Positions 975-20,881 of a stretch of DNA of 29,876 nt are shown here, piece after piece. Both the position numbers and the translations under genes were made by a program. How positions within the stretch are numbered: position 1 is the first letter of the stretch; every line of letters begins with the position of its first letter. The DNA comes from Candidatus Bathyarchaeota archaeon RBG_13_52_12 (lineage in GTDB: Archaea; Thermoproteota; Bathyarchaeia; TCS64): NCBI GenBank assembly GCA_001774245.1, contig MEZF01000047.1, positions 69,601 to 99,476 of the forward strand. Reading direction: 5' to 3'. The notes beneath the pieces are model-generated. The model was not told where the DNA came from and made no database searches. It saw nothing but the letters and a program-made list of their open reading frames with translations.

Positions 975-1143
975 AAAATAGGTCCCTCGAACTGCACGCG
1001 CGGGGCTTCAGGTTCTGTGCCCTAGAAACCGACCTCGGCCACCTCACACGCTCGGTGAAGACCACCATCGGCTAAGTCAAGGGCTGGAAGCCAGGGGAGG
1101 GCGGTGAGGCGCCCCCAGTCTAAACCCGTATTCTAAACCACCC
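975..1143 (-). ncRNA. Candidate structured small RNA (family unknown, H/ACA-like features)
   Basis: GC-rich ORF-free spacer with nested stems on the minus strand: GCCCT 1084-1080 / AGGGC 1023-1019 followed by ACA, GCCGA/TCGGT, and CTTCAC/GTGAGG. There is an AT-rich promoter-like element at ~1167-1175 and a T-run near 975. Ends are approximate. Confidence 0.3.
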
Positions 1144-1207
1144 TTCATGCGCGATTGAGCAATTAGTATTTTAACCCCCTCAACGGTTTCAAGTCGAGTG
1201 GTCTCCC

Positions 1208-1735
1208 TTGATCGAGAGGCTGAAGCATAGGCTACGAGGCGTAGAGGCAATAGATGCCTGGGCTGCTGTCGCCATTCTCATCAGAGAAGAGGCTAACGAC
1301 TACGAGACCCTCCTCGTCAGGCGCGCCGTCGTCCTGGGGGACCCATGGTCGGGGGACATGGCGTTCCCCGGCGGGAAGAGAGCGAGGGACGACCGTACAC
1401 TCAGGGATACTATCATAAGGGAGGTACAAGAGGAGACCGGAATAGATCTCGACTCCCTTACATACATAGGCGGCCTCCCCGTGATGTTCTCATCAATAAA
1501 ACCGGATAGGGATGTACTACCCATCGTATACCTCTACGAGGGGAGGCCAGAGATCAGGCTCAACCCCGAGCTTACCGCTTACCGCTGGGTACACCTCAAG
1601 GAACTCAGGGAGAGCAGGACTACAGCGAAGGTAAAAGATTGGGAGGGAGAGGTCTTCAAACTCGGAGATGACATCATCTGGGGGCTCACCTATAAGATGC
1701 TCAACAAACTCCTCGAAATACTCGACGAGGTTTAG
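1208..1735 (+). CDS. Nudix hydrolase, CoA pyrophosphatase (NudL/PCD1-like)
   Basis: WSGDMAFPGG CoA-type motif followed by the Nudix box GGKRARDDRTLRDTIIREVQEETG; C-terminal IWGLT. Confidence 0.85.
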   Translation: MIERLKHRLRGVEAIDAWAAVAILIREEANDYETLLVRRAVVLGDPWSGDMAFPGGKRARDDRTLRDTIIREVQEETGIDLDSLTYIGGLPVMFSSIKPDRDVLPIVYLYEGRPEIRLNPELTAYRWVHLKELRESRTTAKVKDWEGEVFKLGDDIIWGLTYKMLNKLLEILDEV

Positions 1736-2601
1736 ACCAGAGCCTTCTTCAAGGCCTTCGCTACGTCAATGGGCTGCTCACCTATAGCTGCGCCAGCGCC
1801 CCTAAGGGCGTTCATCTTGCTGTCCGCTGTCCCAGCAGCTCCCTGTATTATAGCGCCTGCGTGGCCCATCCTCTTCCCCGGAATGGCAGCGCGACCAGCT
1901 ATATATGCCGCCAAAGGCTTCGTGAATCCCCCTGAGGCGATGAAGTCAGCGGCTTTCTCCTCCGCGTCCCCACCGATCTCCCCGATGAGAGCGACCGCCC
2001 TAGTCTCTACGTCATTCTCAAACCACTTTAGGAGCTCTATATAGTCGAGGCCAACTACTGGGTCACCGCCGAGGCCTACACATGTGGATTCACCGAGGCC
2101 CTGATTTGTGACATGGGCAGCGATCTCGTAGAAGAGGGTGCCGCTGCGGCTAATGATGCCGACTGAGCCGCGTTTGAAGACCTGGTTCGGCATAATTCCC
2201 ATCTTTGACTCTCCCGCCTTGATGAGGCCTGGGGTATTGGGGCCGATGACCGTTGTGTCTAATTGCTTAGCCCGGGCGACAAGCTCGATAGTGTCCCTGA
2301 CGGGTATGCCTTCAGTGATGACGACGACAGGGTTCATCCCAGCCTCGATGGCTTCAAGAGCAGCATCGAGGGCACCGAAGGCGGGGACGAAGACTATGCT
2401 CGCGTCGAGTCCATGCTTTTCCTTGGCCTCGACGACGGTGTCGTAAACGGGTGTGCCGTCGACGTCTTGGCCTCCGCGGCCCGGGGTAACGCCGGCGACC
2501 ACCGTGGTGCCGTATTCCTTCATCCTTGCGGCGTGGAACCTGCCCTGTGTGCCGGTGACGCCCTGTACAACGACCTTCGTGTCCCTGTTGATGAGCTTCA
2601 T
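1732..2601 (-). CDS. sucD: Succinyl-CoA synthetase alpha subunit
   Basis: VVVQGVTG, AGVTPG, IGPNTPG, SRSGTL, GLGGD, GEIGG and MGHAGA (phospho-His). ATG 2601 lies 7 nt after GGAGG; TTG 2607 is an alternative start. Confidence 0.97.
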   Translation of the reverse strand: MKLINRDTKVVVQGVTGTQGRFHAARMKEYGTTVVAGVTPGRGGQDVDGTPVYDTVVEAKEKHGLDASIVFVPAFGALDAALEAIEAGMNPVVVITEGIPVRDTIELVARAKQLDTTVIGPNTPGLIKAGESKMGIMPNQVFKRGSVGIISRSGTLFYEIAAHVTNQGLGESTCVGLGGDPVVGLDYIELLKWFENDVETRAVALIGEIGGDAEEKAADFIASGGFTKPLAAYIAGRAAIPGKRMGHAGAIIQGAAGTADSKMNALRGAGAAIGEQPIDVAKALKKALV

Positions 2602-2603
2602 GT

Positions 2604-3746
2604 TCAAACCTCCTTAGCGAGGTGGACGACCTTCTGAGCCGCCTCCTCCATCGTGTCATTCGTCTCTATACCTGCGCCGTGAAGGAGCCTCTTTCCCTCC
2701 TCCTCGTTGGTGCCCATCATCCTGACGACTATGGGTTTGTTGTCACCGAGCTTCTTCCGTGCCTCGATGATGCCCTTAGCGGTATCATCGCAGCGGGTTA
2801 TGCCTCCGAGGACATTGACGAAAAGTGCCTTGACTCTGTTATCTTTGAGTACGAATTCAACTGCTTTGCCAATGCGGTCGGGGTTGGCACCACCGCCGAG
2901 GTCTAGGAAGTTCCTCGCCCTCCCTCCGTAGAGCATGACTGTGTCGAGCGTCGACATTGTAAGACCTGCGCCGTTGCCGATGATGCCGATGTCGCCATCC
3001 AGTTCGACGTATGTGAGATCCATAGCGCGTGCCTCCATTTCCCGGGGGGTCAGTTCCCCCTCGAAGCTCTCAATGTACTTCGCTTCCAGCTCTTTGTGCC
3101 TGTAGAGGGCGTTGTTGTCGACGTTAAGCCTAGCGTCGGCGGCCACGAAACCCTCCGCCGTCTCGATGAGTGGGTTGATCTCCGTCAACTCCGCGTCCAT
3201 CTCATATGCGACTCTGTATAGACTCAGGAGGATGTCACTGAGTTGCTGCATCTTCTTTCCGCTGTAGCCGAGGCGCTTGGCAACTTCGTTTGCATGGTAG
3301 CTTCGGAAACCCATTAGGGGGTCGACGTTGTGTCTGACAATCTTCTCGGGGTTCCTAACGGCGACCTCTTCTATGTTCATGCCCCCCTCACCTGAGGCGA
3401 GGATGGTGTAGCATTTCGCGGCTCGGTCTACGATGACTCCGAGGTAAATCTCATGCTGGATTCTAAGCCGCTCCTCGACGAGTACCTTCCGTACGGTGAG
3501 GTCCTTGATCTTCATACCGAGTATCTGCTTCGCTGCCTCGCGGGCTTGTACGGGGGTATCCGCAGGCTTGATGCCTCCAGCCTTCCCCCTGCCACCAACT
3601 CCCACCTGGGCCTTGACTACTACAGGTCTACCAATGATCGCTGCAGCGTCTTTGGCCTCGCCGGGTGTCTTAGCGATGGCGCTCATCCCAAGGGGGATGC
3701 CGTACCGCTTGAAGACCTCCTTCGCCTCGTACTCAAGAAGTTTCAT
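2604..3746 (-). CDS. sucC: Succinyl-CoA synthetase beta subunit
   Basis: MKLLEYEAK, KAQVGVGGRGKAGG, EINPL, GNGAGL, NFLDLGGG and NVLGGITRCD; overlaps sucD. Confidence 0.97.
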   Translation of the reverse strand: MKLLEYEAKEVFKRYGIPLGMSAIAKTPGEAKDAAAIIGRPVVVKAQVGVGGRGKAGGIKPADTPVQAREAAKQILGMKIKDLTVRKVLVEERLRIQHEIYLGVIVDRAAKCYTILASGEGGMNIEEVAVRNPEKIVRHNVDPLMGFRSYHANEVAKRLGYSGKKMQQLSDILLSLYRVAYEMDAELTEINPLIETAEGFVAADARLNVDNNALYRHKELEAKYIESFEGELTPREMEARAMDLTYVELDGDIGIIGNGAGLTMSTLDTVMLYGGRARNFLDLGGGANPDRIGKAVEFVLKDNRVKALFVNVLGGITRCDDTAKGIIEARKKLGDNKPIVVRMMGTNEEEGKRLLHGAGIETNDTMEEAAQKVVHLAKEV

Positions 3747-3848
3747 TTGGTCAACCTCATCGATTGTAGGAGAGTAACCCGAGTCGAATAGATAATTATT
3801 CTGGGCGTCGAATCGGATGCCGATTTGTATTGGCTCACCACGCGCGCA

Positions 3849-4034
3849 ATGTTAAATCCCGATCAGAACCAACTATCAGGCAACATAATCGTCCTCCTAG
3901 CTAAGGTAATGGCTCTAACATGCGTCGACCTCCTCTACGATAAGGCGAAGCTCGCCAAGGAGATCACAAAAAACTTTAAGACCTCCATTCCACCAGGCGA
4001 CTACGAGGGCTTCATGAGGAAGCTCGTCGCCTAA
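3849..4034 (+). pseudogene. 3' remnant of an M20-family amidohydrolase
   Basis: AKVMALTCVDLLYDKAKLAKEITKNFKTSIPPGDYEGFMRKL resembles the C-terminal helices of M20 amidohydrolases (recalled pattern AK.MA.T..DLL..). The catalytic N-terminal portion is absent. Confidence 0.55.
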
Positions 4035-4083
4035 CCCTCTTATCCCTCTTTACCCTCATCTTCAGGGAGGTAACCTCAACTTG

Positions 4084-4908: not shown

Positions 4909-4915
4909 TTAGGCG

Positions 4916-5818
4916 ACGGGGTTCCCAGCCGACAAGACAGGCCTCACCAATTGGTTCGTTATGAAGGGGAGAGGTCTAGGGTTCTACACCGAGACGAGCT
5001 ACATGAGCCCCGAGGGCGACGCCGTCGCAGACGTCGCCTGGGGCCTCAACGCCGGCCAAAAACCAGTATTCACCTTCGCATTCGAGGAGACGGACCCCAC
5101 GATGATATTTGCCGGGGCTCTCCAGTGGGTTGGGTCCTCGACTGAGCCGAGGTCCTGGATGCACATATACGTGTTTCTGGGCGGGCCTTTAGAGGCGCCT
5201 GCGGACCTTCCCTTCCCAAGCAACATCAAGATCTATGATTCACAGGGAATTGCTGACCTTCCCCACGACCTAGAGGAGCTGACAGCGCATATGGCTCAGC
5301 TTCTAAGCCGATATGGGGGTTTATCGACCGGCGTCACTTTAGAGGAATCAGTTAAGCTCACGACGTATATTACTGAGGGTTGGCCGAGAGGTAAATCGAA
5401 TACACGTCTCAGCTACAGGGCCTCAGCACGGCTAGGGTTGGGTCTCTTACTTTTCACCTCCGAGAACGAGGATGACGAGGGGGCAGTGAAACCCCCCTTG
5501 AGGCCAAGCCGGAACGTGGTCCCGCTGGAGGTAGTAAGCGGTGGCGCCAATTTCGGGGGTGCCCTGATTCGCCTCATCGAGGCTGAGGATGGTCACCTCC
5601 TCTTCTCTACTGAGCACAGGAACTACCCCTTCATATTGCGTTTAAAAGTTGCGGAGAGGGGCGGGCCTTCAATGCTCGACCTTTGGTTCGACGCGGACAA
5701 GTCGAATGTTCCACAGGCGCTCGAGTTCTCTGCGCTACTTGAAGCCGTCGAGTCATCAAAGTTGGTCAGACTACTTGGGCCCTCGGATGAGGTAGCGGAG
5801 TTAATTATTCACGGCTAG
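4916..5818 (+). CDS. Hypothetical protein, N-terminus with a possible PD-(D/E)xK-like fold
   Basis: Long ORF with host-like codon usage. GFYTETSY..ADVAW..FTFAFEE resembles a restriction-endonuclease-like core. The first ATG is at 4961; an in-frame ACG at 4916 lies 6 nt after AGGTGAT. Confidence 0.7.
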   Translation, partial: TGFPADKTGLTNWFVMKGRGLGFYTETSYMSPEGDAVADVAWGLNAGQKPVFTFAFEETDPTMIFAGALQWVGSSTEPRSWMHIYVFLGGPLEAPADLPFPSNIKIYDSQGIADLPHDLEELTAHMAQLLSRYGGLSTGVTLEESVKLTTYITEGWPRGKSNTRLSYRASARLGLGLLLFTSENEDDEGAVKPPLRPSRNVVPLEVVSGGANFGGALIRLIEAEDGHLLFSTEHRNYPFILRLKVAERGGPSMLDLWFDADKSNVPQALEFSALLEAVESSKLVRLLGPSDEVAELIIHG

Positions 5819-7095
5819 AAGAGTTCCTCATCGACCGTGCGCCGGGGTTTGAAGTGCCACTCGAAGAGGCTCGCAGCGCCGAAAAGGGCGATGCTGCTGA
5901 GGAGGAATGTCACGGGGTATCCTAAGAAGAAGCTGATGTTTCCACTGAGGAAGCTGCCGAGGAACATGGCGATGCTGTTTAAGGCGCTGTATACGCCGAG
6001 TGTCCCCCCCTGTCCCTCCTTCGGGAGGAACCGGTAGAGGAGCGCGTTCATCCCGATGGTGATGTTCGTGTAGGCCATACCGATGAGGAGGTAGAGGAGG
6101 AGGGTCACGTACAGCACGCTGTGACCGAAGAAGTATAGGCTCTCTATCGCCGCAAAGAGGAAAGCCATGGCTCTCAGTGACATGAACTCCACGATCATCC
6201 CGGGGTCACCTCTCTTACTAGAGCGGCTGAACCTCTGTGCACTCGCTAGGCCGTTTATGCATGTCACGAAGATTCCTAGTCCAGTTATCTCGAGGTTGCT
6301 GAGGTTGTTCGCTTTGAGGAAGGGTGTATAGCTGGTGAAGAAGAGGTTGGCTCCTAGGAAGAAGAGTACGTTCGTAGCCATGATTAGGGGGATGTCCCTC
6401 GTCACTGCACTACGGGCACCCTTGGTTAGTCCCTTGAAGTCCTCCAACTTCGGTACCTTGATGAGGATCACTGGGAGGTGGGCTAGGCGTGTGATGAGGG
6501 CCTCGGGGTTGAAGGTGATCGCTTGCCTCTCGGTGGCCGTCTTCGAGTCCTTCACTAGGGCTAGTGAGAGAATGAGGAGAATTGTGCTAAAGCCCACTGG
6601 GAGAAGGGCGACGGCGGTTAGTGGCAGGGACGTGAGGACGAGAAATCCTAGCGCGTTTCCAGTTAGGCTCCCATATATCATGTACTTGAAGCTGATGGCA
6701 CTTCCCTCACCAAGGTTCTCCTTCGAGACCGTGTCCATGAGTAGGAGGCTAAAGACCGTCGGGCTGAAGCTACTGAAGAAGCTGTAAATGGCGTAGAATC
6801 CGATTATCAGGTTAATATCCCCGGCCATGGCGATTAGGCTCAGCGTGAATAGCTGCCCCATTGCGCTGAGGGCTAGTAGGGGCCTCCTCCTCCCGATGTA
6901 GTCGGCTATCTTCCCCCCTATGAAGGCCGAGGGTATTAGCGAGATGTTATAAGCAGATGAGGCGAGCCCAACGCTAATGACGCTCCCTCCGAGTTCTAGG
7001 ATTCGCAGCGTGATGTAAGTTCCTATGCAGCTCTGTATCGCGTAGAAGGGTATGATGGCGTAAAGCCAGCGGGGCCTCAGGAACCTCTCCGCCAA
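5815..7095 (-). CDS. MFS transporter
   Basis: About 12 hydrophobic segments, GGKIADYIGRRRPLL (motif A) and GQGGTLGVYSALNSIAMFLGSFLSG. Confidence 0.9.
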   Translation of the reverse strand: MAERFLRPRWLYAIIPFYAIQSCIGTYITLRILELGGSVISVGLASSAYNISLIPSAFIGGKIADYIGRRRPLLALSAMGQLFTLSLIAMAGDINLIIGFYAIYSFFSSFSPTVFSLLLMDTVSKENLGEGSAISFKYMIYGSLTGNALGFLVLTSLPLTAVALLPVGFSTILLILSLALVKDSKTATERQAITFNPEALITRLAHLPVILIKVPKLEDFKGLTKGARSAVTRDIPLIMATNVLFFLGANLFFTSYTPFLKANNLSNLEITGLGIFVTCINGLASAQRFSRSSKRGDPGMIVEFMSLRAMAFLFAAIESLYFFGHSVLYVTLLLYLLIGMAYTNITIGMNALLYRFLPKEGQGGTLGVYSALNSIAMFLGSFLSGNISFFLGYPVTFLLSSIALFGAASLFEWHFKPRRTVDEELF

Positions 7096-7160
7096 GTTTT
7101 AATCTATCCCGACTCAGATACCTGCGATAATCTCACAGGATTAATAAGGGTTGATGGCTT

Positions 7161-8825
7161 ACGAGGCGGTCGAACTTTTCCTGGTGGTCACTTCCCATCG
7201 CAACCGGCGTCGTGGCCGGCTTTGCCGCCTCGGTGATAAATGGGCTCGTCTACTACTCCTGGGAGACCTTCTACCAGGACGCCTTGAAGACTCCAACTCT
7301 ATTCTTCGTCTTTCCCTTCACCGGTCTCGTCCTCAGCTACTTCCTCATCCACCTATTTGCCTGGTATAAGACGCCAAAGAGCAGCTTCCACAATATACTC
7401 GAGGTCTTCCACCTGGCACCGAGTGGTTTGATACCCAGGGAGGCGATCGTGAAAACTGTCTCAGGGATAGCTACATCGATCTTCGGTGGTTCGGCTGGGC
7501 CGGAGGGGCCATCAGCGGTCATCTCGGGTGGGTTCTCAAGCTGGTTGAATAAGATTCTGCGCCTCAGGATGGGGTCAGGCAAGGTGCTTATGATAGGTGT
7601 AGCTGCAGGCTTCTCGGCGAGCTTCAAGACCCCCCTCACTGGGCTCCTCTTCGCCCTCGAGTTCCCTTACCGGAGGGACATTGAGAAAGAATCGTTCATC
7701 GAGGCTGCTATAGCTAGCTCAACAGCGTACCTAGTCTCCGTGGCGGTGGGGGCCCCTAGCCTCGTCCCCAGCCTCCAGCTCGATGTGGCAGCCCTGCCAA
7801 TGGTCTGGTTGCCGATCTCTATGGTCTTCGGGCTCGCTACAGGCGGAGTCGTATTCCTCTTCACCAGCGTCTATGGTGCCTGTGAGAGGCTCGCGAGGCA
7901 GGTCGTTATACGTGGTGGCTACCCACTGATGCTCATCATTGGAGGCATCGTACTTGGTGGGGTGGGCTACGTTTCACCCCAGTCAGTTGGCCCAGGTTAC
8001 CAGATGGTCCCCCTCATGTTGAGTGGCTCTCTTATGACTCTTGGCGTCGTCTTGTTGCTCCGAACACTTACGACGGGTATAACGATGAATTTCGGCGGAA
8101 CTGGAGGCCTCTTCCTACCAACGCTGCTGTTAGGTGGAGCCTGGGGGGCAATGGTGGGCACCGCCCTGATGCCTTCGATGACGCCGATCTTCATACTAAT
8201 GGGCATGGCCGCATTCTCTGCAGGTGTGCACAAAATGATGCTGACCCCCATCGTCTTCATAGCAGAGGTCTTCGGGCCCCACACAATTATACCAATAATA
8301 CTATCGACAGTCGTCTGTTTCTTCGTCTCAGGTGCCTACAGCTTCTACCCCATCCAACCGGCGAACAAGGTAAGCCAGGAGGAGCTTGCCCTCGAGAGGT
8401 TCTACTATAAGGTCACGAGGAGCAGACCGAAGGAGCTTGAGAAGCTCACCGCGAGAGACATAGCGACCCGGAACCCCCAGAGGCTACACGCCAACGTCAG
8501 CATCAGGGAGGCCATGAAGGCTTTCGGTGAGACGAGCTTCAGGCTTATGCCGGTAGTCAATGCGGACGAGAAGGTAGTAGGCTACGCCACCCTCGAAGGC
8601 CTAGCATTCCTATCGAAGACGGCTCTCGATGACCCGCTGAACACGGTGGAGCTGCAGCCACCCCTTGTCTTCGGTGAGGATGAGCCCGTGATGAATATGA
8701 TCGAGAAGATGATAGAAGGAAAAGAGGATCATTGCTTCATCGTCGATGGCGAGCAGAAGCTCACGGGCATTATTTCAACCATCGATGTGACGCACCTACT
8801 GATGAGTTACTACATCCAAGTCTGA
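7161..8825 (+). CDS. CLC-family chloride channel/transporter with two CBS domains
   Basis: GGSAGPEGP, FKTPLTG, GGTGGLFLP, MGMAAF and a C-terminal CBS pair. The ORF track starts at GTG 7212, but the frame is open and helix-like back to ACG 7161. Confidence 0.9.
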   Translation, partial: TRRSNFSWWSLPIATGVVAGFAASVINGLVYYSWETFYQDALKTPTLFFVFPFTGLVLSYFLIHLFAWYKTPKSSFHNILEVFHLAPSGLIPREAIVKTVSGIATSIFGGSAGPEGPSAVISGGFSSWLNKILRLRMGSGKVLMIGVAAGFSASFKTPLTGLLFALEFPYRRDIEKESFIEAAIASSTAYLVSVAVGAPSLVPSLQLDVAALPMVWLPISMVFGLATGGVVFLFTSVYGACERLARQVVIRGGYPLMLIIGGIVLGGVGYVSPQSVGPGYQMVPLMLSGSLMTLGVVLLLRTLTTGITMNFGGTGGLFLPTLLLGGAWGAMVGTALMPSMTPIFILMGMAAFSAGVHKMMLTPIVFIAEVFGPHTIIPIILSTVVCFFVSGAYSFYPIQPANKVSQEELALERFYYKVTRSRPKELEKLTARDIATRNPQRLHANVSIREAMKAFGETSFRLMPVVNADEKVVGYATLEGLAFLSKTALDDPLNTVELQPPLVFGEDEPVMNMIEKMIEGKEDHCFIVDGEQKLTGIISTIDVTHLLMSYYIQV

Positions 8826-8981
8826 TGATGTTGACTTGCGCCGACCCGTATAGGTTTGAGGAGATGTTATCTGTGCTATCACGTCGCGCGCTCGATCTCC
8901 CTCATCGACCTCGACTCCGATATCCCGCGCGCTCTCAACACTTAATAGGCTAAGAAACCAGCATCGCTCAAGTGTGTTCCA

Positions 8982-9809
8982 ATGAGCTTCGAGTACCCGG
9001 AGGCGAGGCTCCTCGCCGGACAACTGGACGCGACTATCAAAGGGAAGAAAATCGAGTCATACGACCTCAAGGACTACGAAAAGATTCACAGGATAGGCTT
9101 CATCAACAGAGACCTCGACGACTTCAAACGACTCGTCGGTAGGACAGTCATGGGAGCGGGGAGCAGCGGGAACACGATTCGCGTAAGGCTTGACAATGGC
9201 ATGAACCTTTTGCTGGCACCAGAGTACGGTGGCGTCATCCTCTACCACCGAGCCGGTGACGACGCGAAGTATCATCTCAGAATCGGTTTCACCGGGGGTG
9301 ATTCACTCACCGTCCGCCTCATTAGCATGGGCGTCATCTACGCGGCTGACGATGATCAGCTTGACGGCGTCTACATATACAGGCGAGACTATCGTGGAGC
9401 CTCCTCCCCAGGAGACCTTACGCCCGAGCGATTCACAGAGCTCATCACAGCTAAGGCTACGCAGCTCAAACCTCTGCTCGTCGGGAAGAACGCAGCCGTG
9501 TCAGGCCTCAGCAACAGCGCTTACCAAGACGTGCTCTACCGTGCGGGCATCCACCCGCGTAGGAAGTCATCCGAACTGTCATCGAACCAGATCAATGCCC
9601 TCTACGACGCTGTTAAAGCCCTTATTGAGGAGAGACTAAGGCAGGGTGGGAAAGACGAGATCCTCGACCTCTTCGGCAAGAAGGGCGGGTACACTCCCGT
9701 CATGGGCCCGAACATGAAGGATCGACTCTGCCCCCGATGTGGGGCCAAGGTAGAGAGGACGGCGCTGGGTGGGGGCCAGGTCCATTACTGCCCCGGCTGC
9801 CAGATTTGA
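8982..9809 (+). CDS. Fpg/Nei-family DNA glycosylase-like protein (divergent)
   Basis: N-terminal EYPEA, H2TH region SGLSNSAYQDVLYRAGIHP, and C4 zinc finger CPRC..CPGCQ. Confidence 0.85.
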   Translation: MSFEYPEARLLAGQLDATIKGKKIESYDLKDYEKIHRIGFINRDLDDFKRLVGRTVMGAGSSGNTIRVRLDNGMNLLLAPEYGGVILYHRAGDDAKYHLRIGFTGGDSLTVRLISMGVIYAADDDQLDGVYIYRRDYRGASSPGDLTPERFTELITAKATQLKPLLVGKNAAVSGLSNSAYQDVLYRAGIHPRRKSSELSSNQINALYDAVKALIEERLRQGGKDEILDLFGKKGGYTPVMGPNMKDRLCPRCGAKVERTALGGGQVHYCPGCQI

Positions 9810-10101: not shown

Positions 10102-10182
10102 ACGTATTTTTTACGCGCTAGGACATTGAGAAGAGCAAATAGTAAAAAGTTCCGCGCGCGCCTGCTTCTACGTACAGCGCAC

Positions 10183-12504: not shown

Positions 12505-12526
12505 GCTATGGGAGCAGTCCCATAGC
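12505..12526. repeat. Perfect 9-bp stem hairpin
   Basis: GCTATGGGA-gcag-TCCCATAGC. Confidence 0.6.
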
Positions 12527-13237
12527 TGAACCGTTCTAGCTGATGAGGCAGTTGGCTGCAGCGGCAACTCAGGGAGCTTAGGTGGCTGTGGCGGCTCATG
12601 GCTGCGGCTGTGGTGGCATCTGAAGGCTACGAAGCTGCTGCGAGGCTCTCTAAAGAGGAGTCATTACACCTCTCTGGTGTGGCTCTGGCTAAGCCCTCCT
12701 GGGTCCTGAAGGCTTTGGTCAGCTTTTCTCTCGAGTCCCTTCAGCTGAACGGCCGGCTCTCCCCCGATGATGACTATGTTCGGTCGCTCCTCTGGCTGCC
12801 CGCTGGTCTGCCGTGGTCGAGGGGGCTGGGCGACGGTTGATCTGGCTGGCTGCGGTTGCGGTTGAAAGCTTAGTTGAGGCGTTAGTTGGGCTGGTTGAGC
12901 AATCGGTAGAGTCGGCAGAAGTCTTTCAGCGTTTACAACCTCCCCCATAGGAACCGTGCTAACCGCCTCAACCTTCTCAGCCGTCTGTACCGGCCTCTCA
13001 ACAGAGACAGCCGGCGCAACCGACTTCTCTACCGAGTCAGCCGGAACCACCGACTGCGGCTGCCCAGCCACTGGAGCCGGCTGATTCTTGGGGGAGCGCG
13101 CAACCCAACTGGAATCTTCTTCGGATCGTACCCGCCTACCACCAAATTATCGAATATTTTAGCGCAGGCACTTGTTGCGGTTTTTCTGGTCTAGAGGGTG
13201 TGCTCATGGTCGGTGCCGGCCGTACCCCACCTTCTAA

Positions 13238-13450
13238 TCGATAAAACAGTTATTTATCGAAAGTAGTTTGGAGAAGATTCAATGGATGATTTTTAACAAG
13301 CATCCATCAGTTGATGAAAAGGTCAATCGGCTTCTGAAACTATAAGGGCTGCGCACTCGGCAGCGCGACTACACTCTCTCCTAAATGCTACGCGCACGCA
13401 AAAGCCACTCCAGAGCACATACTGTCAATGACCTTTTGACATGATGTGCT
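13238..13450. repeat. Cluster of inverted repeats
   Basis: TCGATAAA-N7-TTTATCGA (13238-13260); ATGGATG-N12-CATCCAT (13282-13307); 15-bp arms with 2 mismatches around N7 (13414-13450). Confidence 0.7.
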
Positions 13451-13535
13451 TCTGCATACCGACGACTCTCCGCATCTATTTTAATTCGTGGTTAAGTATA
13501 ACCATGTTCCAGCGTATTCACGAGTTGAATTTGAT

Positions 13536-14636
13536 ATGTGGAGACTCTTAGATCTAGGGGCCGTCGACGGCTATACGATGACAAACCTCTACGAGGCAGT
13601 CGCAAAAACGGTGAGCGAGGGGTCATCACCAAACACAGTCATACTCGACCACCCGGCGAATCCCTTCGTCAACATCGGCTACCACCAGATGATGGAGAAA
13701 GAGATTAACATCGAATACGCCCGTGAAATGGGCTTCAGCCTCGTAAGAAGAACCATCGGCGGAGGAGCGATCCTAGACGGCCCCTGGGAGCAGGACTACT
13801 TCGCGGTCGTCAACAGAAAAAGCCCAGACTGCCCTCCTACTATACCTGAGTTCTACGAAAAGTTCACAAGACCCGCGATATACGCCCTTAAATGCTTTGG
13901 CCTGGAGGCACAGCTTCGAAAACCGAATGACTTGACCGTCGGAGGAAGAAAAATTTCGGGGAACGGCGCCATAACCATCGACCAAGCCAACGTCTTGGCC
14001 GGAGACATCCTCATGCAGACGCCCGCCGACCTGATGAGCAAGATTATCAAGGCCCCCAGCGAGAAGTTCAAGGACAAACTCGCCGACTCTATGACCCAGT
14101 GGTTAACGTCCCTTGAAAGGGAACTCGGAGAGGTCCCTAACCGGGAGGATGTGAGGAGCCGCCTCGTCGAGGGGTATGAGAAAGAGATCGGTGTAACCCT
14201 AATACTGGGTACACTGACGGAGAAGGAGAGCGGCTACTTAGAGGAGCTCTTAGAGGAGAGAAGAGGCGAGGACTGGATCTTCTCCAAGGATCTCGAGCTC
14301 AGGCACCTATTATCGGATGAGGGTAGAGGGGCTAAGGTGAAGGAGGGGGTGACGGTGTTGGAGTCAGTCTACAAGGCAGGCAAGATGGTTAGGGTCACTG
14401 TGGTTGCTCGTGACAATAAGATTGATGGGATTTCTATTTCAGGTGACTTCTTCACGCAGCCGTTCATGGGTGCCATCTCAAAGCTGGAAGGAGCACTGGT
14501 GGGTGTGGAGCTTGAGGAGGCGCCGCTTTTGAGCGCTGTTTCTGAAGTCTTTGCGGCTACGGGGATCAAGGTTCTTGGAGCAGCTTCTGAGGACTTTGTT
14601 GCCGCTATTCTGAAGGCGAAGGAGTATCTTAGATAG
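13536..14636 (+). CDS. lplA: Lipoate-protein ligase A family
   Basis: MWRLLDLG, RRTIGGGAI, KPNDL and GRKISGNG, with a C-terminal ISGDFF domain. ATG 13536 is ~30 nt after TTAAGTATAA. Confidence 0.9.
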   Translation: MWRLLDLGAVDGYTMTNLYEAVAKTVSEGSSPNTVILDHPANPFVNIGYHQMMEKEINIEYAREMGFSLVRRTIGGGAILDGPWEQDYFAVVNRKSPDCPPTIPEFYEKFTRPAIYALKCFGLEAQLRKPNDLTVGGRKISGNGAITIDQANVLAGDILMQTPADLMSKIIKAPSEKFKDKLADSMTQWLTSLERELGEVPNREDVRSRLVEGYEKEIGVTLILGTLTEKESGYLEELLEERRGEDWIFSKDLELRHLLSDEGRGAKVKEGVTVLESVYKAGKMVRVTVVARDNKIDGISISGDFFTQPFMGAISKLEGALVGVELEEAPLLSAVSEVFAATGIKVLGAASEDFVAAILKAKEYLR

Positions 14637-14755
14637 CACGCGCGATCTCGTATATGCTGAAGAGAGTAATTATTTTCTTCATGTACCGGCGGTACTATGG
14701 TGGAAAATTGTCAATAATGGAGAGCTATTTAGCGCGCGCGAACTGGACAGGAGAG

Positions 14756-14935
14756 TTAAGATCTTCCGAATCTGCTGAAGGCGATGGCGTCGACTATTAG
14801 TACAGCAACGCTCATGGCGGCAACAATCGCGAGGTCGAAGAGCACCGCGGAGCTCGCCAGAGGAGCACCTCTCACGAAGACGGATGTCAGAGCATCCGTG
14901 ACATAGTAGCTTGGAACGAGCCTGCCAACGGACTG
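14756..14935 (-). pseudogene. 3' remnant of an ABC-2 type permease
   Basis: QSVGRLVPSYYVTDALTSVFVRGAPLASSAVLFDLAIVAAMSVAVLIVDAIAFSRFGRS*. It resembles the C-terminus of the intact permease at 18077-18808; no start codon. Confidence 0.65.
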
Positions 14936-15021
14936 AGAGCTATGGACATTAGGACCTTGATTCAGTCAAGTGTAAACGACCCCTTATCTCGTGTGGAACC
15001 ACCGTAGAAAACCTTAATACT

Positions 15022-15040
15022 TATCCCATCCCCCCGGATA
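15022..15040 (+). promoter_or_regulatory. CsoR-family operator
   Basis: TATCC-catcccccc-GGATA (inverted arms around a C-tract) lies between the TATA-like CCTTAATAC and the csoR ATG. Confidence 0.65.
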
Positions 15041-15044
15041 GGAT

Positions 15045-15311
15045 ATGACCGTTCACAAGCAGAGAAAAAACGTCCGAGACCGCCTAGTAAGAGCCGAGGG
15101 TCATCTGCATGGGATCATAAAGATGATCGACGAGGAGAAGGAATGTCCAGACATTCTCATACAGATCGCTGCAGTCCGAGCCGCCCTCGAGAAAGCCGGC
15201 GCAATCATCCTAGAGGACCATCTTGAACACTGCCTAATCGAAGCGGTCAAATCAGGCGACATTGAACCACAGCTCGATGAACTCAAGGCAGCCCTCCAGA
15301 AGCTCCTTTAG
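15045..15311 (+). CDS. csoR: CsoR/RcnR-family metal-sensing repressor (InrS-like fingerprint)
   Basis: RAEGHL..I..M, ECPDILIQIAAVR and EDHLEHC (Cys-His-Cys), plus an N-terminal His4. Confidence 0.93.
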   Translation: MTVHKQRKNVRDRLVRAEGHLHGIIKMIDEEKECPDILIQIAAVRAALEKAGAIILEDHLEHCLIEAVKSGDIEPQLDELKAALQKLL

Positions 15312-17162
15312 GTGCCTAGGATGGTAAACCGCAATAAGGCTATACTCCTCGCGGTCTCGGTTGGGCTCGGAGCCACGAGTTGGCTAGCTCAGATACTCAA
15401 CCTACTACCCCCACAGATCTACAACGCCCTATCCCTTCTGGGCGCTGTCCTAGGCGTCATATTCATCGCGCATAGCGCCATCAAGGCCTTGCTCGGTGGA
15501 GTCTTCGGCATAGACCTCCTCGCCACCGTCGCCATAGTGGCTTCCATTATGCTCGGTGAGAACCTAGCCGCTATTGTTGTCGTGCTTATGCTAGGGGGTG
15601 GCGAGATACTTGAAGAATTCATTAGTAGAAGAGCCAATAGGGCAATAGAGGAACTGATTGACGCCTTCCCAAAGTTCACCACGATGATCCGTGACGGAGA
15701 AGAGGTTGAGGTTTCGGTCTCGGAGGTAAAGCCTGGGGACGTCGTAGTCGTGAAGCCTGGTGGGATGATCCCGGTCGATGGCGAGGTCATCAATGGTAAT
15801 GCGACCGTCAACCAGAGCAGCGTGACGGGTGAGCCTCTCCCCGCCGAGAAGCAGCGGGGAGACGATGTTCTGAGCGGGTCAATAGTGGAGCTTGGCTCCG
15901 TCCAGATTCAAACCCGAGTAGTTGGCGCTGAGAGCACCTATGGTAGAATAATCGTTATGGTTAGGGAGGCTGAGGAGAATCAGGCACCAATAGTTCGCCT
16001 TGCTGATCGATTCGCAGGCTATTACATCCCCGTGATACTTGTGCTCGGTTTGGCAGTCTACTTTATTACACGTGACCCTGTCAAGATGGCTTCGGTCTTC
16101 ATCATAAGCTGCCCATGCGCCTTGACTCTCGCAACTCCAATGGCTGTAGCTGCGAGTATAGGCAATGGCGCAAGAAAAGGCATACTCATCAGAAATGGGG
16201 CTAGCCTGCAGAAACTCGCAGACGTCGACACCGTGGTCCTCGACAAGACGGGCACCCTCACACTCGGCCGCCCCAAGGTCTCGGAAGTTAAGGGCTTCAA
16301 TGGCACACCCGACCATGTCGTTCTTGCATTGGCCGCTGGAGCTGAGAGGCACTCCGAGCACCCCATAGCCAAAGCGGTCACCAATAAAGCTGAGGAGGAG
16401 GGCATCCAATCCGTGGAATGTTCCGAGGTGGAGACACACCCTGGTATGGGCATCTGTGTAACACACGACGAGACGCGAGTCACTGTCGGCAGCGAGAAGC
16501 TGCTACGACAGCAGGGAATAACCATCACAACCCAAGCAACAGAGTACCTGAGCAACCAAAACACAAATCAGTCCACGATACTCATAGCGAAGAACCGAGA
16601 CCTCATTGGAGCCATTACGGTTTCAGACACACTCAGGGAGAACGTCCGCGAGGTAATCTCTGACATGAGACGAAGTGGAGCCTCAAGAATCGTCATACTC
16701 ACGGGAGACAGGCGCGAGGTCGCTGACGAGGTGGCGACTAAGGCAGGCGTAGATGAAGTTGTAGCAGATCTACTGCCCGCAGAGAAGGTAACCCATGTGA
16801 AGAGATTGAAGGAAACCGGACGCAGGGTCGTGATGGTGGGAGACGGTATCAATGATGCACCAAGCCTCGCCACCGCTGACGTGGGCGTAGCTATGGGTCT
16901 CACTGGGACGGACATCGCCATCGAGACAGCGGGTATAACACTCTCGAATAACCGACTTGAAGGAATTCCAAAGTTGCTCCGAATTGGGCGTGAAACAATG
17001 AAGATAGTGAAACTCAACATTGGCTTCGCTCTCGTGGTAAACGCAATCGGGATAATACTCTCTGCAACTGGTCAGATTAATCCCCTGACCGCCAGCATCA
17101 TTCATGAGGGCAACGCTTTACTTGTTATGCTGAACTCGCTTCGACTACTCCGTGTTGACTAA
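15312..17162 (+). CDS. Heavy-metal P1B-type ATPase without an N-terminal metal-binding domain
   Basis: TGEP, SCPC, DKTGT, SEHP, GDGINDAP and HEG; ATG 15321 is an alternative start. Confidence 0.95.
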   Translation: MPRMVNRNKAILLAVSVGLGATSWLAQILNLLPPQIYNALSLLGAVLGVIFIAHSAIKALLGGVFGIDLLATVAIVASIMLGENLAAIVVVLMLGGGEILEEFISRRANRAIEELIDAFPKFTTMIRDGEEVEVSVSEVKPGDVVVVKPGGMIPVDGEVINGNATVNQSSVTGEPLPAEKQRGDDVLSGSIVELGSVQIQTRVVGAESTYGRIIVMVREAEENQAPIVRLADRFAGYYIPVILVLGLAVYFITRDPVKMASVFIISCPCALTLATPMAVAASIGNGARKGILIRNGASLQKLADVDTVVLDKTGTLTLGRPKVSEVKGFNGTPDHVVLALAAGAERHSEHPIAKAVTNKAEEEGIQSVECSEVETHPGMGICVTHDETRVTVGSEKLLRQQGITITTQATEYLSNQNTNQSTILIAKNRDLIGAITVSDTLRENVREVISDMRRSGASRIVILTGDRREVADEVATKAGVDEVVADLLPAEKVTHVKRLKETGRRVVMVGDGINDAPSLATADVGVAMGLTGTDIAIETAGITLSNNRLEGIPKLLRIGRETMKIVKLNIGFALVVNAIGIILSATGQINPLTASIIHEGNALLVMLNSLRLLRVD

Positions 17163-17384
17163 GGTGCGCACTGTTGAGTATCAGGTGGGACTCAGGATAA
17201 GACTACCGCGCGCGCGAACATCCCCGATTACTTGTGTCTAATGCAGTGGAATCGTGCGCTAGTGAGCCCTCAGGTGCGTATATGTGATGGGCACTGGGCA
17301 ATCCATCCTTCCCCCCGTGTTCCACCGCGAGCTTAAAACCGTCAGCGAAGTCTTTATCCTATATAATAGCAAACCGATATGTAA

Positions 17385-18080
17385 ATGCAAGCAGATGGGC
17401 TCCTAGTATACTCAGCAGGCGCAGTAGCGCCTCCACTTGAGTATGCTCTCAACACCTTCGATAGGAAAGAAGGGATCAGTTCCCGCTTCGTCGCCGGCAA
17501 GCCGGAGAGCCTGCTGAAAGCCATGGCCCTCAACACGAAGGGCGACGTGATGAGCTGCGGGGCAGAGTACGTCCACGACGAGGCAGAGGACCGAGGCCTC
17601 TTCAAAGTGGGCACGAGACGCAGCCTCGGCTACCGGCGCAGCGTCCTCATTGTTCAAGAGGGTAACCCCCGAGGCATCAAGAGGCTAAAGGATCTTGCCG
17701 AGCCCGGAGTTCGTGTCGGGGTAGCCGTTGGTGGCTGTTTGAAGGGAGTCTGGGATGATGTATGCAGTAAAGCTGGAATTATAGAGGCTGTGAGAGCGAA
17801 TATTGTGGAACACGCAGACGCCTGCGGGACCCTGATGGGGCTAATACACTCTAACAAGGTCGACGTTGTCTTCGGGTGGAACGCCTTCAAGAACATCTGG
17901 CCGGATACATGCGAGTCTGTCGAGCTTCCAAGAGACGTACAGGTCTTCAGGAGCACCGCAGCCCAAGTCATCACCTACACGCGAGACGAGTCACTGTCGA
18001 GGAAGTTCATCGACTTTCTGACGTCCACCGAGGGGCGGCGCATCTACGAGGAGTATGGCTGGCTTCACGTGCCCCGCTAA
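17385..18080 (+). CDS. ModA-like type 2 periplasmic-binding-fold protein lacking a signal peptide
   Basis: LVYSAGAV..PL, GNPRGIKRLKDL..PGVRVGV, KVDVVFGW and FIDFLTS.EGRRIYEEYG. No hydrophobic leader; leaderless ATG after a TATA element. Confidence 0.8.
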   Translation: MQADGLLVYSAGAVAPPLEYALNTFDRKEGISSRFVAGKPESLLKAMALNTKGDVMSCGAEYVHDEAEDRGLFKVGTRRSLGYRRSVLIVQEGNPRGIKRLKDLAEPGVRVGVAVGGCLKGVWDDVCSKAGIIEAVRANIVEHADACGTLMGLIHSNKVDVVFGWNAFKNIWPDTCESVELPRDVQVFRSTAAQVITYTRDESLSRKFIDFLTSTEGRRIYEEYGWLHVPR

Positions 18081-19782: not shown

Positions 19783-19856
19783 GTTCCTCACTCTATCACC
19801 ATTGGAATCTCAACATGTGTCATTGAAAAGCTCCTCGTATCGGGCGATGCATGTGG

Positions 19857-20249
19857 TTATATCGGTGCGTGCGAGCAGGCGCATGATTTCGCCTGATTTA
19901 GACTCGGCATCGCTTCCCTGTGAAGCTCGCACACTAGTCCTTCGGTCCGCAACGTGTAACACACCCTACACATCTTCATGAGAAGCACATCAGGTGGCGT
20001 TTGACCTTCTGCGAGATCGGAGGCTATCTCAGAGACCAGGCTGATTACACTGCTCGATCGCTCAAGGACGCCGGAGCCCGCGTCGCCCCGAGACCTGTTA
20101 AGATATTGAGTTACAGCAGCCGGCGTCACTTCCATCATGTCGGCAACCTCCGTTTTCCTCAGCCCGTGCTCCTCTATGAGCTCTTTAGCTATGGCTCCCC
20201 TTAACGCTGGGAGGATGTATTGAACCACGATCATGCATGGAGGCTTCAA
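19857..20249 (-). CDS. Archaeal HTH transcriptional regulator with a Cys-rich C-terminus (COG2522-like)
   Basis: MKPPC..VVQYILPALRGAIAKEL and VTPAAVTQYL..SRG; CRVC..CELH..CAC. Confidence 0.85.
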   Translation of the reverse strand: MKPPCMIVVQYILPALRGAIAKELIEEHGLRKTEVADMMEVTPAAVTQYLNRSRGDAGSGVLERSSSVISLVSEIASDLAEGQTPPDVLLMKMCRVCYTLRTEGLVCELHREAMPSLNQAKSCACSHAPI

Positions 20250-20282
20250 TGTACCGCCATCAGGGTCTTAGAGGCAAGGCTT

Positions 20283-20307
20283 ATATTTTTAACGCCGTTA
20301 AAAATAT
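20283..20307. promoter_or_regulatory. 25-bp palindromic operator over the regulator promoter
   Basis: ATATTTTTAACG-C-CGTTAAAAATAT has perfect 12-bp arms and overlaps the TATA ~30-40 nt upstream of TTG 20249. Confidence 0.75.
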
Positions 20308-20516
20308 TAACACCGGAGTTGGCGTTCAAGCGATAATTCCTCACTCGCTTAGACACTAGCCAGCTCCGGCATGCTCCCTGAAGGGTTCTTCTCCTTATTA
20401 GGCTGAGGAGTTATACACGCGCTCTAATAGTAACAGCTCAATGTTTGCTGGCATTCGTACAGGGTAGATTGATCACGAGGTCTTAATGGAGATCGCGCGC
20501 GCGACGGTGTAATATT

Positions 20517-20604
20517 TGGTGCGGAGGATGGGATTCGAACCCATGAACCCCTTCGGGATAGGAGCCTCAGTCCTACGCCTTTGGCCTAGCTGGGCGACCT
20601 CCGC
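20517..20604 (-). tRNA. tRNA-Leu (GAG), long variable arm, encoded CCA
   Basis: GCGGAGG/CCTCCGC acceptor, TAGGA-CTGAGGC-TCCTA anticodon arm, ATGGG-TTCGAAT-CCCAT T arm, then A-CCA. Confidence 0.97.
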
Positions 20605-20656
20605 CCACCAAAGTTACCCGCCATCGCCCATTTAAATGGTTTGTCAAGGCGCGGGA

Positions 20657-20731
20657 TGGGGCCTCTGCTGGGAGTCGAACCCAGGTCAAGGGATCCACAG
20701 TCCCGTATGCTACCGTTACACCACAGAGGCC
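20657..20731 (-). tRNA. tRNA-His (GTG) with encoded G-1 and CCA
   Basis: G-GCCTCTG/CAGAGGC-C-CCA, anticodon loop CTGTGGA, CTGGG-TTCGACT-CCCAG; C27:U43 mismatch. Confidence 0.95.
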
Positions 20732-20881
20732 GCGCGGAAAATGTGATACAGGGGATACATTAAAAGGGTTTCGCGAACAGAGGCACGGTCACAACATGTG
20801 AGTACTGGGCGCGAGCATCGCCGGTGAGTTCCGCTTATAAAGGAATCAACGTACCTCCCAATGTAAAGGAGGTGAGCCGAG

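Follow-up and report, generated by a model that had tools for sequence, protein, structure and literature searches.

Alternating CG runs between the genes of a soil Bathyarchaeia genome are probably scars of mended DNA breaks

Short tracts of alternating C and G recur between the genes of the 29,876-nt stretch of DNA analysed here (the window), which comes from an uncultured soil archaeon of the Bathyarchaeia, and several of them lie immediately past the ends of genes. What put them there? An earlier note on this DNA suggested an overlooked boundary or termination signal, a histone-positioning element or a protein-binding site, and pointed to the capacity of (CG)n to form Z-DNA. When the window was rechecked, every coordinate given for a run proved correct and CG alternation was present at each. 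The distances to the LplA stop, the wHTH stop and tRNA-Leu were confirmed by measurement (Table 1), and the claim of about three runs in coding sequence was matched by three in the window CDS, at 1321, 12009 and 22990. A run is defined here as a maximal stretch of alternating C/G of at least 6 nt, unless another cut-off is given. G000 denotes this genome, of which 2.08 Mb was analysed (85% complete, parts masked), with genes and intergenic DNA separated by crude gene calls made in this analysis. G010 is a sister species with ~90% identity, of which ~1 Mb (~45%) was compared with G000.

Table 1. Alternating CG runs of the window, with their lengths and surroundings
Run	Position	Strand	Length (nt)	Surroundings
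CGCGCG	997–1002		6	In a 106-nt segment (968–1072) replacing 1,426 nt of G010
CGCGCGC	3841–3847		7	Probable older scar, common to G010 (9 nt there)
First of two probable scars	8885–8891		7	Spacer between ClC channel gene and Fpg-like gene
Second probable scar	8926–8932		7	Right joint of a ~6.6-kb deletion (junction alignment)
CGCGCGCGC	10153–10161		9	Convergent spacer, 21 nt past wHTH stop; tied to no specific event
GCGCGC	13096–13101		6	Non-coding/decayed DNA; no relative aligned, tied to no event
CGCGCG	14639–14644		6	2 nt past LplA stop, where homology ends
GCGCGCGCG	14732–14740		9	Decayed stretch between lplA and P-type ATPase operon; tied to no event
(CG)5	17207–17216		10	Joined to a copy (17169–17205) of a ~80-copy dispersed repeat
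T(CG)5A, full-length unit	20494–20503		10	13 nt past tRNA-Leu; exact homology breakpoint with G010
CGCGCG	20731–20736	-	6	Directly 5′ of tRNA-His; kept in 9/9 orthologous loci
CGCGCGCGC	22990–22998			Inside intact ORF 22804–23343 (minus strand); coding use

Across G000, 477 runs were found in 0.416 Mb of intergenic DNA (GC 42%) vs 288 in 1.67 Mb of CDS (GC 53%). With a cut-off of at least 7 nt, the counts are 306 and 78, a 16-fold difference in density. The most over-represented intergenic 8-mer is CGCGCGCG, with 280 occurrences against 63 expected from an order-3 Markov model trained on the intergenic DNA of G000 itself. Density in G000 also depends on position, amounting to 2.2–3.8 runs per kb at 0–40 nt past stops, 0.3–0.9 per kb at 0–50 nt upstream of starts and 2.0–2.3 per kb at 50–80 nt upstream. 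Convergent spacers have the highest density (1.66 runs per kb) and divergent spacers the lowest (0.85 per kb). Both the intergenic concentration and the gene-end bias claimed by the earlier note persist in the refutation test that it had set. The run at 8926 illustrates such a position in the window: following the 6.6-kb deletion, it lies just 5′ of the Fpg-like gene promoter.

In the window alone the excess is modest (CGCGCG occurs 18 times vs 9.8 in dinucleotide shuffles, 2 of 100 of which reach 18), as might be expected if the runs were a by-product of composition, replication slippage of the microsatellite kind or assembly error. The excess holds, however, against the order-3 Markov model of intergenic DNA. 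Intergenic runs of 6 to 12 nt number 171, 122, 86, 74, 22, 1 and 1 in G000, a plateau up to 9 nt that nearly stops at 10, whereas TA, CA and GA repeats drop 3–4-fold per added base; this non-geometric distribution, and the constancy of run length in near-identical strains, speak against slippage. The pattern recurs in many Bathyarchaeia genomes that were assembled independently, closed ones among them, and the single-contig genomes G074 and G149 also contain runs, which argues against assembly error. Contigs from other soil samples likewise span four window runs (14639, 14732, 17207 and 20494) with neither indel nor length change: an independent soil-sample contig covers 13778–15151 (runs 14639 and 14732) with one mismatch and no gap, the contig of run X5 covers 16604–17239 gap-free (run 17207), and an other-sample contig covers 19925–20546 without any difference (run 20494). 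A by-product origin is scarcely credible, and is already refuted by the tests made.

Comparison with the sister species placed many runs at the edges of shared DNA. Thirty of the 205 internal homology breakpoints between G000 and G010 have a G000 run within 3 nt. By comparison, a run is as near as this at 1.5% of positions in intergenic DNA and at 3.6% of those 0–40 nt past stops, and the excess at breakpoints has a binomial p of 1e-20 against the former background and 1e-10 against the latter. If a run in either genome is counted, 50 of the 205 (24%) have one within 3 nt and 71 within 10 nt. Of the 64 palindromic hexamers tested at breakpoints, only GCGCGC (28) and CGCGCG (24) pile up, the rest reaching 3 at most. 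Taken literally, the runs do mark boundaries.

Several such boundaries fall in the window. Homology to G010 contig C53 ends at 967 and restarts at 1073, the run at 997 lying 30 nt inside the replaced piece, and the run at 3841 is 35 nt away from a 1,155-nt indel at 3882/3892. Homology with all relatives stops at the stop codon of the ClC channel gene (8825), and the 34 nt separating the runs at 8885 and 8926, in the spacer before the Fpg-like gene, have no match to anything. Homology to G013, G005 and G010 then restarts at 8932/8933, 5′ of the promoter of the Fpg-like gene (8982–9809). In G013, G015 and G003, ~6.6 kb separates the genes flanking this joint, and that stretch is missing from G000. 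Past lplA, the G005 alignment stops at 14635, and G005 carries its own GCGCGCGC 10 nt past the LplA stop, followed by unrelated DNA. The homology of a small ORF beside the run at 10153 to four species ends at 10105, and G010 diverges from G000 upstream of 17346. The run past tRNA-Leu is present in one of nine orthologous loci and missing in the other eight. With its length of only 6 nt, the run at 13096 could be a chance occurrence. The run at 20731 belongs to a conserved leader or start region of the tRNA and is no scar; a second tRNA with a leader like that of tRNA-His is found at G000 C77:4303.

The alleles on either side of clean indels identify the newer sequence. Among 39 such indels between G000 and G010, the short allele has a run of at least 6 nt in 12 and a 4–5-nt or transition-decayed run in nine. 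Approximately half of the 39 are run-free, and other repair routes therefore coexist. Of the 12 with a run of at least 6 nt, seven have the short allele on the G000 side and five on the G010 side, so that both lineages are represented. The long alleles are ordinary single-copy genes, encoding iron alcohol dehydrogenase-like, luciferase-like oxidoreductase, DapA-like and alpha/beta hydrolase proteins, and no runs were found at the ends of these genes in the long alleles. Truncated gene stubs of 327, 97 and 121+111 nt are left beside the run in short alleles. Since the long alleles are run-free and single-copy and the short alleles retain stubs, these events are deletions with added filler. The alpha/beta hydrolase gene is intact in seven species (G010, G002, G012, G008, G017, G011 and G007) and deleted in G000 and G013, with differing end points that are both sealed by GCGCGCGC(G); it was lost twice independently. 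De novo runs were also seen inside broken genes. The extra bases lie exactly at the deletion joint and are missing from the ancestral allele, which is the mark of end-joining filler. We consider it probable that intergenic (CG)n runs are scars, that is, new self-complementary patches laid at the joint of a sealed double-strand break, deletion or segment replacement.

Alternatively, the runs could be pre-existing recombination sites: identical 8–10-bp palindromes, dispersed through the genome, that provide microhomology or the core for a site-specific recombinase. Deletion, inversion or exchange of cassettes between such sites would then cause the breakpoints. This would suit the 9–12 of 205 breakpoints, including the window run at 20494, at which the run is kept in both species and one flank is unrelated, as well as an 85-nt segment in G000 C46 that lies between two runs where G010 has a single run, and a 240-nt module in G000 C89 with runs at both borders. 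In the cleanest deletions, however, the ancestral long allele is run-free at both end points and the run is new sequence, and the independent deletions of the hydrolase gene both carry a run despite their differing end points. We regard pre-existing sites as an unlikely explanation. A site-specific recombination core of the integron attC or dif-like kind is likewise disfavoured, given that the site was not in both partners beforehand and the long alleles are run-free at the end points. A non-systematic look linked no recombinase to the runs. Recombination at runs may instead be a secondary use of existing scars.

Could the runs be functional cis-elements, whether as transcription boundary or termination signals, chromatin-positioning elements, global protein sites or supercoil-absorbing Z-DNA? 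Their strong bias to positions just past stops and 50–80 nt before starts, which extends to divergent spacers, is compatible with such roles, as are the TATA-like boxes that adjoin some runs. Termination signals of the kind suggested by the earlier note were not borne out, as 25.5% of runs have a T5/A5 tract no more than 30 nt away, vs 25.2% of random intergenic positions. Nor did the runs behave as protein-binding or conserved cis-elements: only 7 of the 21 in aligned intergenic DNA are kept in the 90%-identical G010, the tRNA-Leu run is absent from most orthologous loci, and runs occur at joints within broken genes. Of 75 evaluable intergenic runs, seven are kept in G010 and 54 are at or beyond breakpoints, leaving the proposed roles in termination, histone positioning, protein binding and Z-DNA formation unsupported. 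Three to five CG repeats are also short for Z-DNA. A functional role for the runs in general is very unlikely, and individual runs may have acquired a secondary function.

That the runs derive from an insertion sequence or MITE family, as its ends or as marks of its excision, is highly improbable, and largely refuted for this genome. A few runs do adjoin dispersed repeats: in the window, the run at 14732 adjoins a short one (14687–14733), and the repeat copy joined to the run at 17207 is cut off where other copies continue as far as an ATG. The dispersed repeats touching runs are, however, truncated at differing points. Among 738 G000 run flanks, only 73 are similar to another flank, with just 3 pairs aligning in register with the run, and the DNA lost at run-bearing joints comprises single-copy housekeeping-type genes and no mobile elements.

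If the runs are scars of sealed breaks, an enzyme would extend each broken end at its 3′ terminus by a short defined tail, here 5′-T(CG)n. As this tail is self-complementary, any two tailed ends could anneal, and trimming, fill-in and ligation would then give T(CG)nA or a shorter product. The observed filler is one alternating unit, T(CG)nA, irrespective of the flanks, and is neither random nor copied from nearby DNA. The full unit is T(CG)5A in G000 and G010, with T...A flanks at 24 of 44 ends of ten-base runs. It is TA(GC)4-5TA in G074 (family f26) and A(CG)4-5T in G104 (family f17), while the ratio of CGCGCGCG to GCGCGCGC moves from about 1:1 to 1:2–3 between families. That runs are capped at ten bases and that the unit depends on the lineage suggests a template or molecular ruler, and not random addition. 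Selection would purge scars in functional DNA, and it is because of this purging that scars would pile up just past stops and just 5′ of promoters; the gene-end bias is what purifying selection is expected to produce if deletions reach only to the stop codon or promoter. Old scars would decay via transitions (CGCACGCG and similar) and could be re-used as microhomology.

Neither a writing enzyme nor a template was found among the candidates examined (Ku, PolX, a primase-like family, reverse transcriptase and Prim-Pol). G000 has a Ku operon of the kind that pairs Ku with a LigD-type polymerase and ligase. Eight genomes are run-rich without Ku (G149, G159, G078, G090, G074, G084, G094 and G098), and family f25 has Ku and few runs. 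Ku-dependent NHEJ was rejected as the source, as Ku fails to track scar abundance across 151 Bathyarchaeia genomes, and PolX was rejected as the writer, its presence being unlinked to scars. The polymerase candidates in the 85%-complete G000 are limited to PriS, an NHEJ polymerase and the remnant of a third primase-like gene; neither Prim-Pol nor reverse transcriptase, TERT included, was detected there. The primase-like family, which occurs in some relatives, was rejected on account of its mere remnant in G000 and because it was not found in G010, G074, G149 or G094. A defined lineage-specific repeat unit, as expected of telomerase-like RNA-templated addition, is present. In the ~45% of G010 that was compared, and among the (CG)5 sites of four relatives, no non-coding locus with a conserved run came to light.

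More tentatively, some Bathyarchaeia might own a dedicated and programmable DNA-gluing system, in which an enzyme writes a lineage-specific self-complementary tail on both ends of any break, Ku-free ligation follows and a palindromic scar remains. We hold this to be possible, though short of probable. Genes would be lost and modules reshuffled rapidly through such a system, whose enzyme might take its guidance from a small RNA or some other template. We found no paper describing such CG scars or this mode of mending breaks, and to our knowledge end joining by a palindromic tail is known in no domain. If runs are written at repaired breaks, they would record, in readable form, each deletion and rearrangement that was tolerated, with hundreds per genome. 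Most would be younger than the split of two 90%-identical species, and the rates and limits of gene loss would become directly measurable in an uncultured, globally abundant archaeal class. The end-joining chemistry would use a defined palindromic tail that makes ends mutually sticky and whose unit changes between lineages. This would be relevant to DNA repair and genome evolution, and might also find application as a tool. In genome annotation, abundant intergenic CG motifs should not be taken for terminators, promoters or binding sites.

Long Z-DNA-forming (CG)n tracts reportedly provoke breaks and large deletions, and in both cases alternating CG sequence lies at deletion breakpoints. There, however, a long pre-existing tract breaks the DNA, whereas the runs described here have at most five repeats and are missing from the ancestral allele. 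REP/BIME elements of enterobacteria and the DUS of Neisseria are abundant short extragenic palindromes or uptake sequences, which resemble the runs in their hundreds of copies, nearly all intergenic and often just past 3′ ends. Unlike the runs, which turn over fast and lie at deletion joints, these elements are longer and conserved between orthologous loci, and their binding proteins or functions in uptake are known.

In eukaryotes, telomerase heals broken chromosomes, and short interstitial telomeric repeats are inserted at repaired breaks. The likeness lies in a fixed, lineage-specific short repeat that is written de novo at a broken end and may become an internal scar. In contrast, G000 yielded neither TERT nor any other reverse transcriptase, no template RNA was found, and the palindrome would let two ends anneal instead of building a protective array, on host chromosomes that are presumably circular. 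The bacterial defence system DRT10 combines a reverse transcriptase with a non-coding RNA and makes tandem-repeat DNA (bioRxiv 10.1101/2025.10.16.682844). It provides a prokaryotic enzyme and RNA that write a defined short repeat, and hence template-programmed repeat synthesis outside eukaryotes. It differs in being protein-primed and serving phage defence, is not reported at genomic joints, and has no reverse transcriptase counterpart found in G000.

End-joining fillers and N-nucleotides are produced by TdT, Pol mu and Pol lambda in V(D)J recombination and NHEJ, by the LigD polymerase domain in bacteria and Methanocella, and as templated insertions by Pol theta. They share with the runs bases that come from neither parent sequence and lie exactly at a deletion or rearrangement joint. 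Whereas known fillers have a random sequence or are copies of DNA close by, the filler here is one self-complementary unit, capped in length and dependent on the lineage.

Maximal alternating C/G stretches (hereafter runs) are concentrated between the genes of Candidatus Bathyarchaeota archaeon RBG_13_52_12 (G000), whose assembly comprises 2.08 Mb in 111 contigs (85% complete, 50.5% GC). On recounting the window, which is C47:69601–99476 of this assembly, the 11 non-coding and three coding runs listed in the earlier note were all found at the correct coordinates, and the total for the window alone exceeds the mean of shuffled sequences by a factor of only about two. For the whole genome, genes were called with a crude, self-trained hexamer model (2,028 genes, 80% coding, an estimate depressed by masked stretches). 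Intergenic DNA (0.416 Mb, GC 42%) contains 477 runs of at least 6 nt and coding DNA (1.67 Mb, GC 53%) contains 288; of these, 306 and 78, respectively, are at least 7 nt long, a 16-fold difference in density. The most over-represented intergenic 8-mer is CGCGCGCG (280 observed versus 63 expected under an order-3 Markov model trained on intergenic DNA), with CGCACGCG and other transition variants of it ranking next. The intergenic enrichment therefore persists against a background drawn from intergenic DNA itself, a check that had been set beforehand. Run counts stay high from 6 to 9 nt (171, 122, 86, and 74), drop to 22 at 10 nt, and are close to zero beyond; TA, CA, and GA repeats become 3–4-fold fewer with each added base. 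Many N stretches of this genome (in the region of C70:13951 and on other contigs) are exactly as long as the matching sequence of the approximately 90%-identical sister species G010, and are thus masked stretches, not assembly gaps.

Contigs from other soil samples span 13778–15151, 16604–17239, and 19925–20546 of the window free of gaps and differing by no more than three substitutions, which indicates that the junctions are real and that run lengths are stable between strains. Approximately 1 Mb of G010, in 60 contigs and amounting to approximately 45% of that genome, was compared with G000, and the two are about 90% identical and largely syntenic. A G000 run lies within 3 nt of 30 of the 205 internal ends of high-identity alignments, against an expected share of 1.5% for intergenic positions (p ~1e-20) and 3.6% for positions just past stop codons (p ~1e-10). 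Counting runs in either genome, 50 of the 205 ends have one within 3 nt and 71 within 10 nt. Among all 64 palindromic hexamers, GCGCGC (28) and CGCGCG (24) dominate the alignment ends, with every other hexamer occurring at most three times. Seventy-five intergenic G000 runs of at least 7 nt could be evaluated: 23 are at a breakpoint, 31 are in unaligned DNA adjoining one, 14 are in aligned DNA but absent from G010, and only seven are common to both species.

What happens at such breakpoints can be seen in 39 clean indels between the two genomes, defined by one allele of at most 40 nt and another of at least 50 nt. In 12 of them, a run of at least 6 nt is present in the short allele; in nine others, the run found there is shorter or has decayed by transitions. 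In G000, 1,194 nt of the G010 sequence are replaced by GCGCGCGCG, 936 nt by CGCGCGC, 515 nt by CGCGC (with its flanking bases, GCGCGCGC), and 226 nt by TCGCGCGC. Replacements also occur in the reverse direction, with 1,283 nt and 207 nt of G000 corresponding to CGCGCGC and CGCGCGCG in G010. The long alleles carry single-copy, ordinary genes with no run at their ends, encoding proteins resembling iron alcohol dehydrogenase (431 aa) and DapA (290 aa), a luciferase-like oxidoreductase (310 aa), and an alpha/beta hydrolase (248 aa); such content speaks against the runs being insertion-sequence ends. Nor do they behave as the ends of mobile elements in general, since only three flank pairs among 738 in G000 are alike in register with the run. 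Beside the run, short alleles retain gene stubs of 327 nt (3′ part), 97 nt (5′ part), and 121 + 111 nt, so that the direction, polarised by outgroups or gene stubs for only a handful of events, is deletion with added filler, not insertion. The alpha/beta hydrolase gene is intact in seven genomes (G010, G002, G012, G008, G017, G011, and G007) and deleted in G000 and G013, with differing end points and with GCGCGCGC(G) at both joints. Judged from these sequence comparisons, the runs are most likely new sequence at deletion joints, for which we use the term scar.

Several runs of the window can be viewed in this way, alongside the genes listed in the table.

Genes and RNAs of the window
Feature	Window position	Strand	Source
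Topoisomerase IB	1–936		Pfam
NUDIX	1208–1735		Pfam
Succinyl-CoA synthetase beta	2604–3746	minus	Pfam
ClC channel with CBS domains	7212–8825		Pfam
Fpg/Nei-like protein	8982–9809		Pfam
Winged-helix protein	10183–11019	minus	Pfam
LplA	13488–14636		Pfam
P-type ATPase	15312–17162		Pfam
Solute-binding protein	17385–18080		Pfam
tRNA-Leu + tRNA-His	20517–20730		

Apart from the two tRNAs, no Rfam family matched in the window. Approximately 6.6 kb separate the ClC and Fpg-like genes in G013, G015, and G003, versus 156 nt in G000. Here, homology with every relative breaks off at the ClC stop codon (8825) and is regained at 8932/8933, directly after the run at 8926–8932 and just upstream of a TATA-like box of the Fpg-like gene. 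A 34-nt orphan fragment (8892–8925) between two scars was either captured or left behind by deletions occurring one after another. The run at 997 is inside a 106-nt piece standing in place of 1.4 kb of G010, while that at 3841, also found in G010, appears to be an older scar. Homology with G005 ends at the run at 14639, and G005 carries its own run past the same stop codon. Comparison with relatives linked the runs at 10153, 13096, and 14732 to no specific event.

The run at 17207 is joined to a shortened copy of a dispersed repeat. This repeat has approximately 80 copies with the core TATCAGGTGG-N4-CTCAGGATAAGG-CTATGG, located at 17169–17205 of the window and on contigs C3, C4, C9, C24, C57, C73, C80, C90, C98, and C103. 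Its copies cluster in one orientation, immediately 5′ of ORF starts, and a second module of approximately 50 nt often comes next. The repeat resembles a leader common to the members of a variable gene array, or a junction between the cassettes of such an array. Another, multi-copy element of G000 (C23, C4, C84, C19, C42, and C103) has a copy in G004 (C10, ~5460–5970) with an internal deletion of approximately 300 nt sealed by (CG)5.

The earlier note had proposed that the runs follow gene ends and serve as a boundary or termination signal, a histone-positioning element, or a protein-binding site. The positional bias is borne out by density profiles normalised for available sequence: 2.2–3.8 runs per kb at 0–40 nt past stop codons, where density is highest, and 0.3–0.9 per kb in the 50 nt ahead of start codons, with a second peak of 2.0–2.3 per kb at 50–80 nt upstream of starts that is also present in divergent spacers. 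Reference densities are approximately 1.2 per kb in far-intergenic and 0.2 per kb in coding DNA, and convergent spacers are the richest in runs and divergent spacers the poorest. The role as a conserved signal did not hold up: run flanks in G000 are heterogeneous in sequence, T-tracts near runs are no commoner than elsewhere in that genome, and, when nine orthologous loci in the genus spanning tRNA-Leu and tRNA-His are aligned, the (CG)5 at 20494 is shared with G010, the closest species, alone. Left of this run, G010 and G000 have unrelated sequences, placing the homology break exactly at the run. CGCGCG at 20731–20736, directly 5′ of tRNA-His, is kept in all nine loci; it is not a scar but a conserved leader or start motif of the tRNA. 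The same leader is also found ahead of another tRNA (C77:4303).

The full-length form of the run, or unit, differs between lineages. T…A flanks occur at 24 of the 44 ends of ten-base runs in G000, giving T(CG)5A, and G010 shares both this form and the 10-base maximum. In the closed G074 genome (family f26, GC 39%), TA(GC)4TA and TA(GC)5TA are the commonest forms across the 420 kb examined, and one gene cassette in G104 (family f17) is surrounded by A(CG)4–5T units. That primase-like cassette (C3:71076–74279) is bracketed and subdivided by the unit at its positions 841–848, 2199–2204, 2707–2712, and 3083–3090, and is itself apparently stitched together by scars. In a survey of 151 Bathyarchaeia genomes, run-rich lineages were found in several families, and the ratio of CGCGCGCG to GCGCGCGC was approximately 1:1 in this genus versus 1:2–3 in f26 and f17. 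The fixed maximum length and the change of unit between lineages are better explained by a template or ruler than by random addition.

Several candidates for the enzyme making the filler were considered. G000 has an end-joining operon (C45:14028–18558) encoding an Lrp-type regulator, a stand-alone LigD-type polymerase (PolDom), Ku, an ATP-dependent ligase, and a 252-aa ORF. At first look, Ku/NHEJ operons seemed to co-occur with runs at the family level; across the 151 genomes they do not track run abundance. Ku is present in run-poor families, and many run-rich genomes lack it, among them G149 and G074, each of which is a single contig. The polymerase-Ku spacer of G010 has a small deletion sealed by CGCGCGC. 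A PolX-PHP polymerase (C7 in G000) was rejected, as it is present in run-free families and was not found in several run-rich genomes. No Prim-Pol (PF09250) was detected in the genus, and no reverse transcriptase (PF00078) in the 85%-complete G000. A third primase-like (AEP) family of 284–460 aa occurs in G007, G013, G011, G017, G005, G098, and G104, and as fragments in G016. It is not supported as the source of the filler, since G000 has a remnant and G010, G074, G149, and G094 yielded only PriS matches or nothing. The remnant (C42:990–1163, minus strand, ~60 codons) is cut at CGCGCG on its 5′ side and forms an in-frame fusion with an ORF of the alkaline-phosphatase superfamily. No run-bearing RNA was seen beside intact copies of this family, which may be a hit-and-run mobile carrier, and weak sequence searches of all G000 ORFs found no further AEPs. 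Likewise, no conserved non-coding locus with the unit was found among runs kept between G000 and G010, at two runs longer than 10 nt, in checks of genes adjoining conserved runs, at the (CG)5 sites of four run-poor relatives, or downstream of PriS or the NHEJ polymerase (the PriS 3′ end of G074 being partly N).

We propose that every broken 3′ end would receive a short tail comprising the lineage's outer base or bases and then alternating CG. Such tails would be self-complementary, allowing any two tailed ends to anneal whatever their origin, and trimming, fill-in, and ligation would leave a palindromic scar or a shorter form, which would decay through transitions. Selection would spare only scars outside functional DNA, and could thereby produce the pile-up just past stop codons and upstream of promoters even if the runs themselves do nothing. 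Existing scars may also act as microhomology in later events, which would account for breakpoints with a run in both species. Full-text literature searches returned no description of such scars, and a preprint on Z-DNA across genomes contained none either. The closest analogues are the filler at end-joining junctions, the interstitial repeats that telomerase leaves where breaks were repaired, and the synthesis of repeats by DRT10 as outlined in a preprint (bioRxiv 10.1101/2025.10.16.682844).
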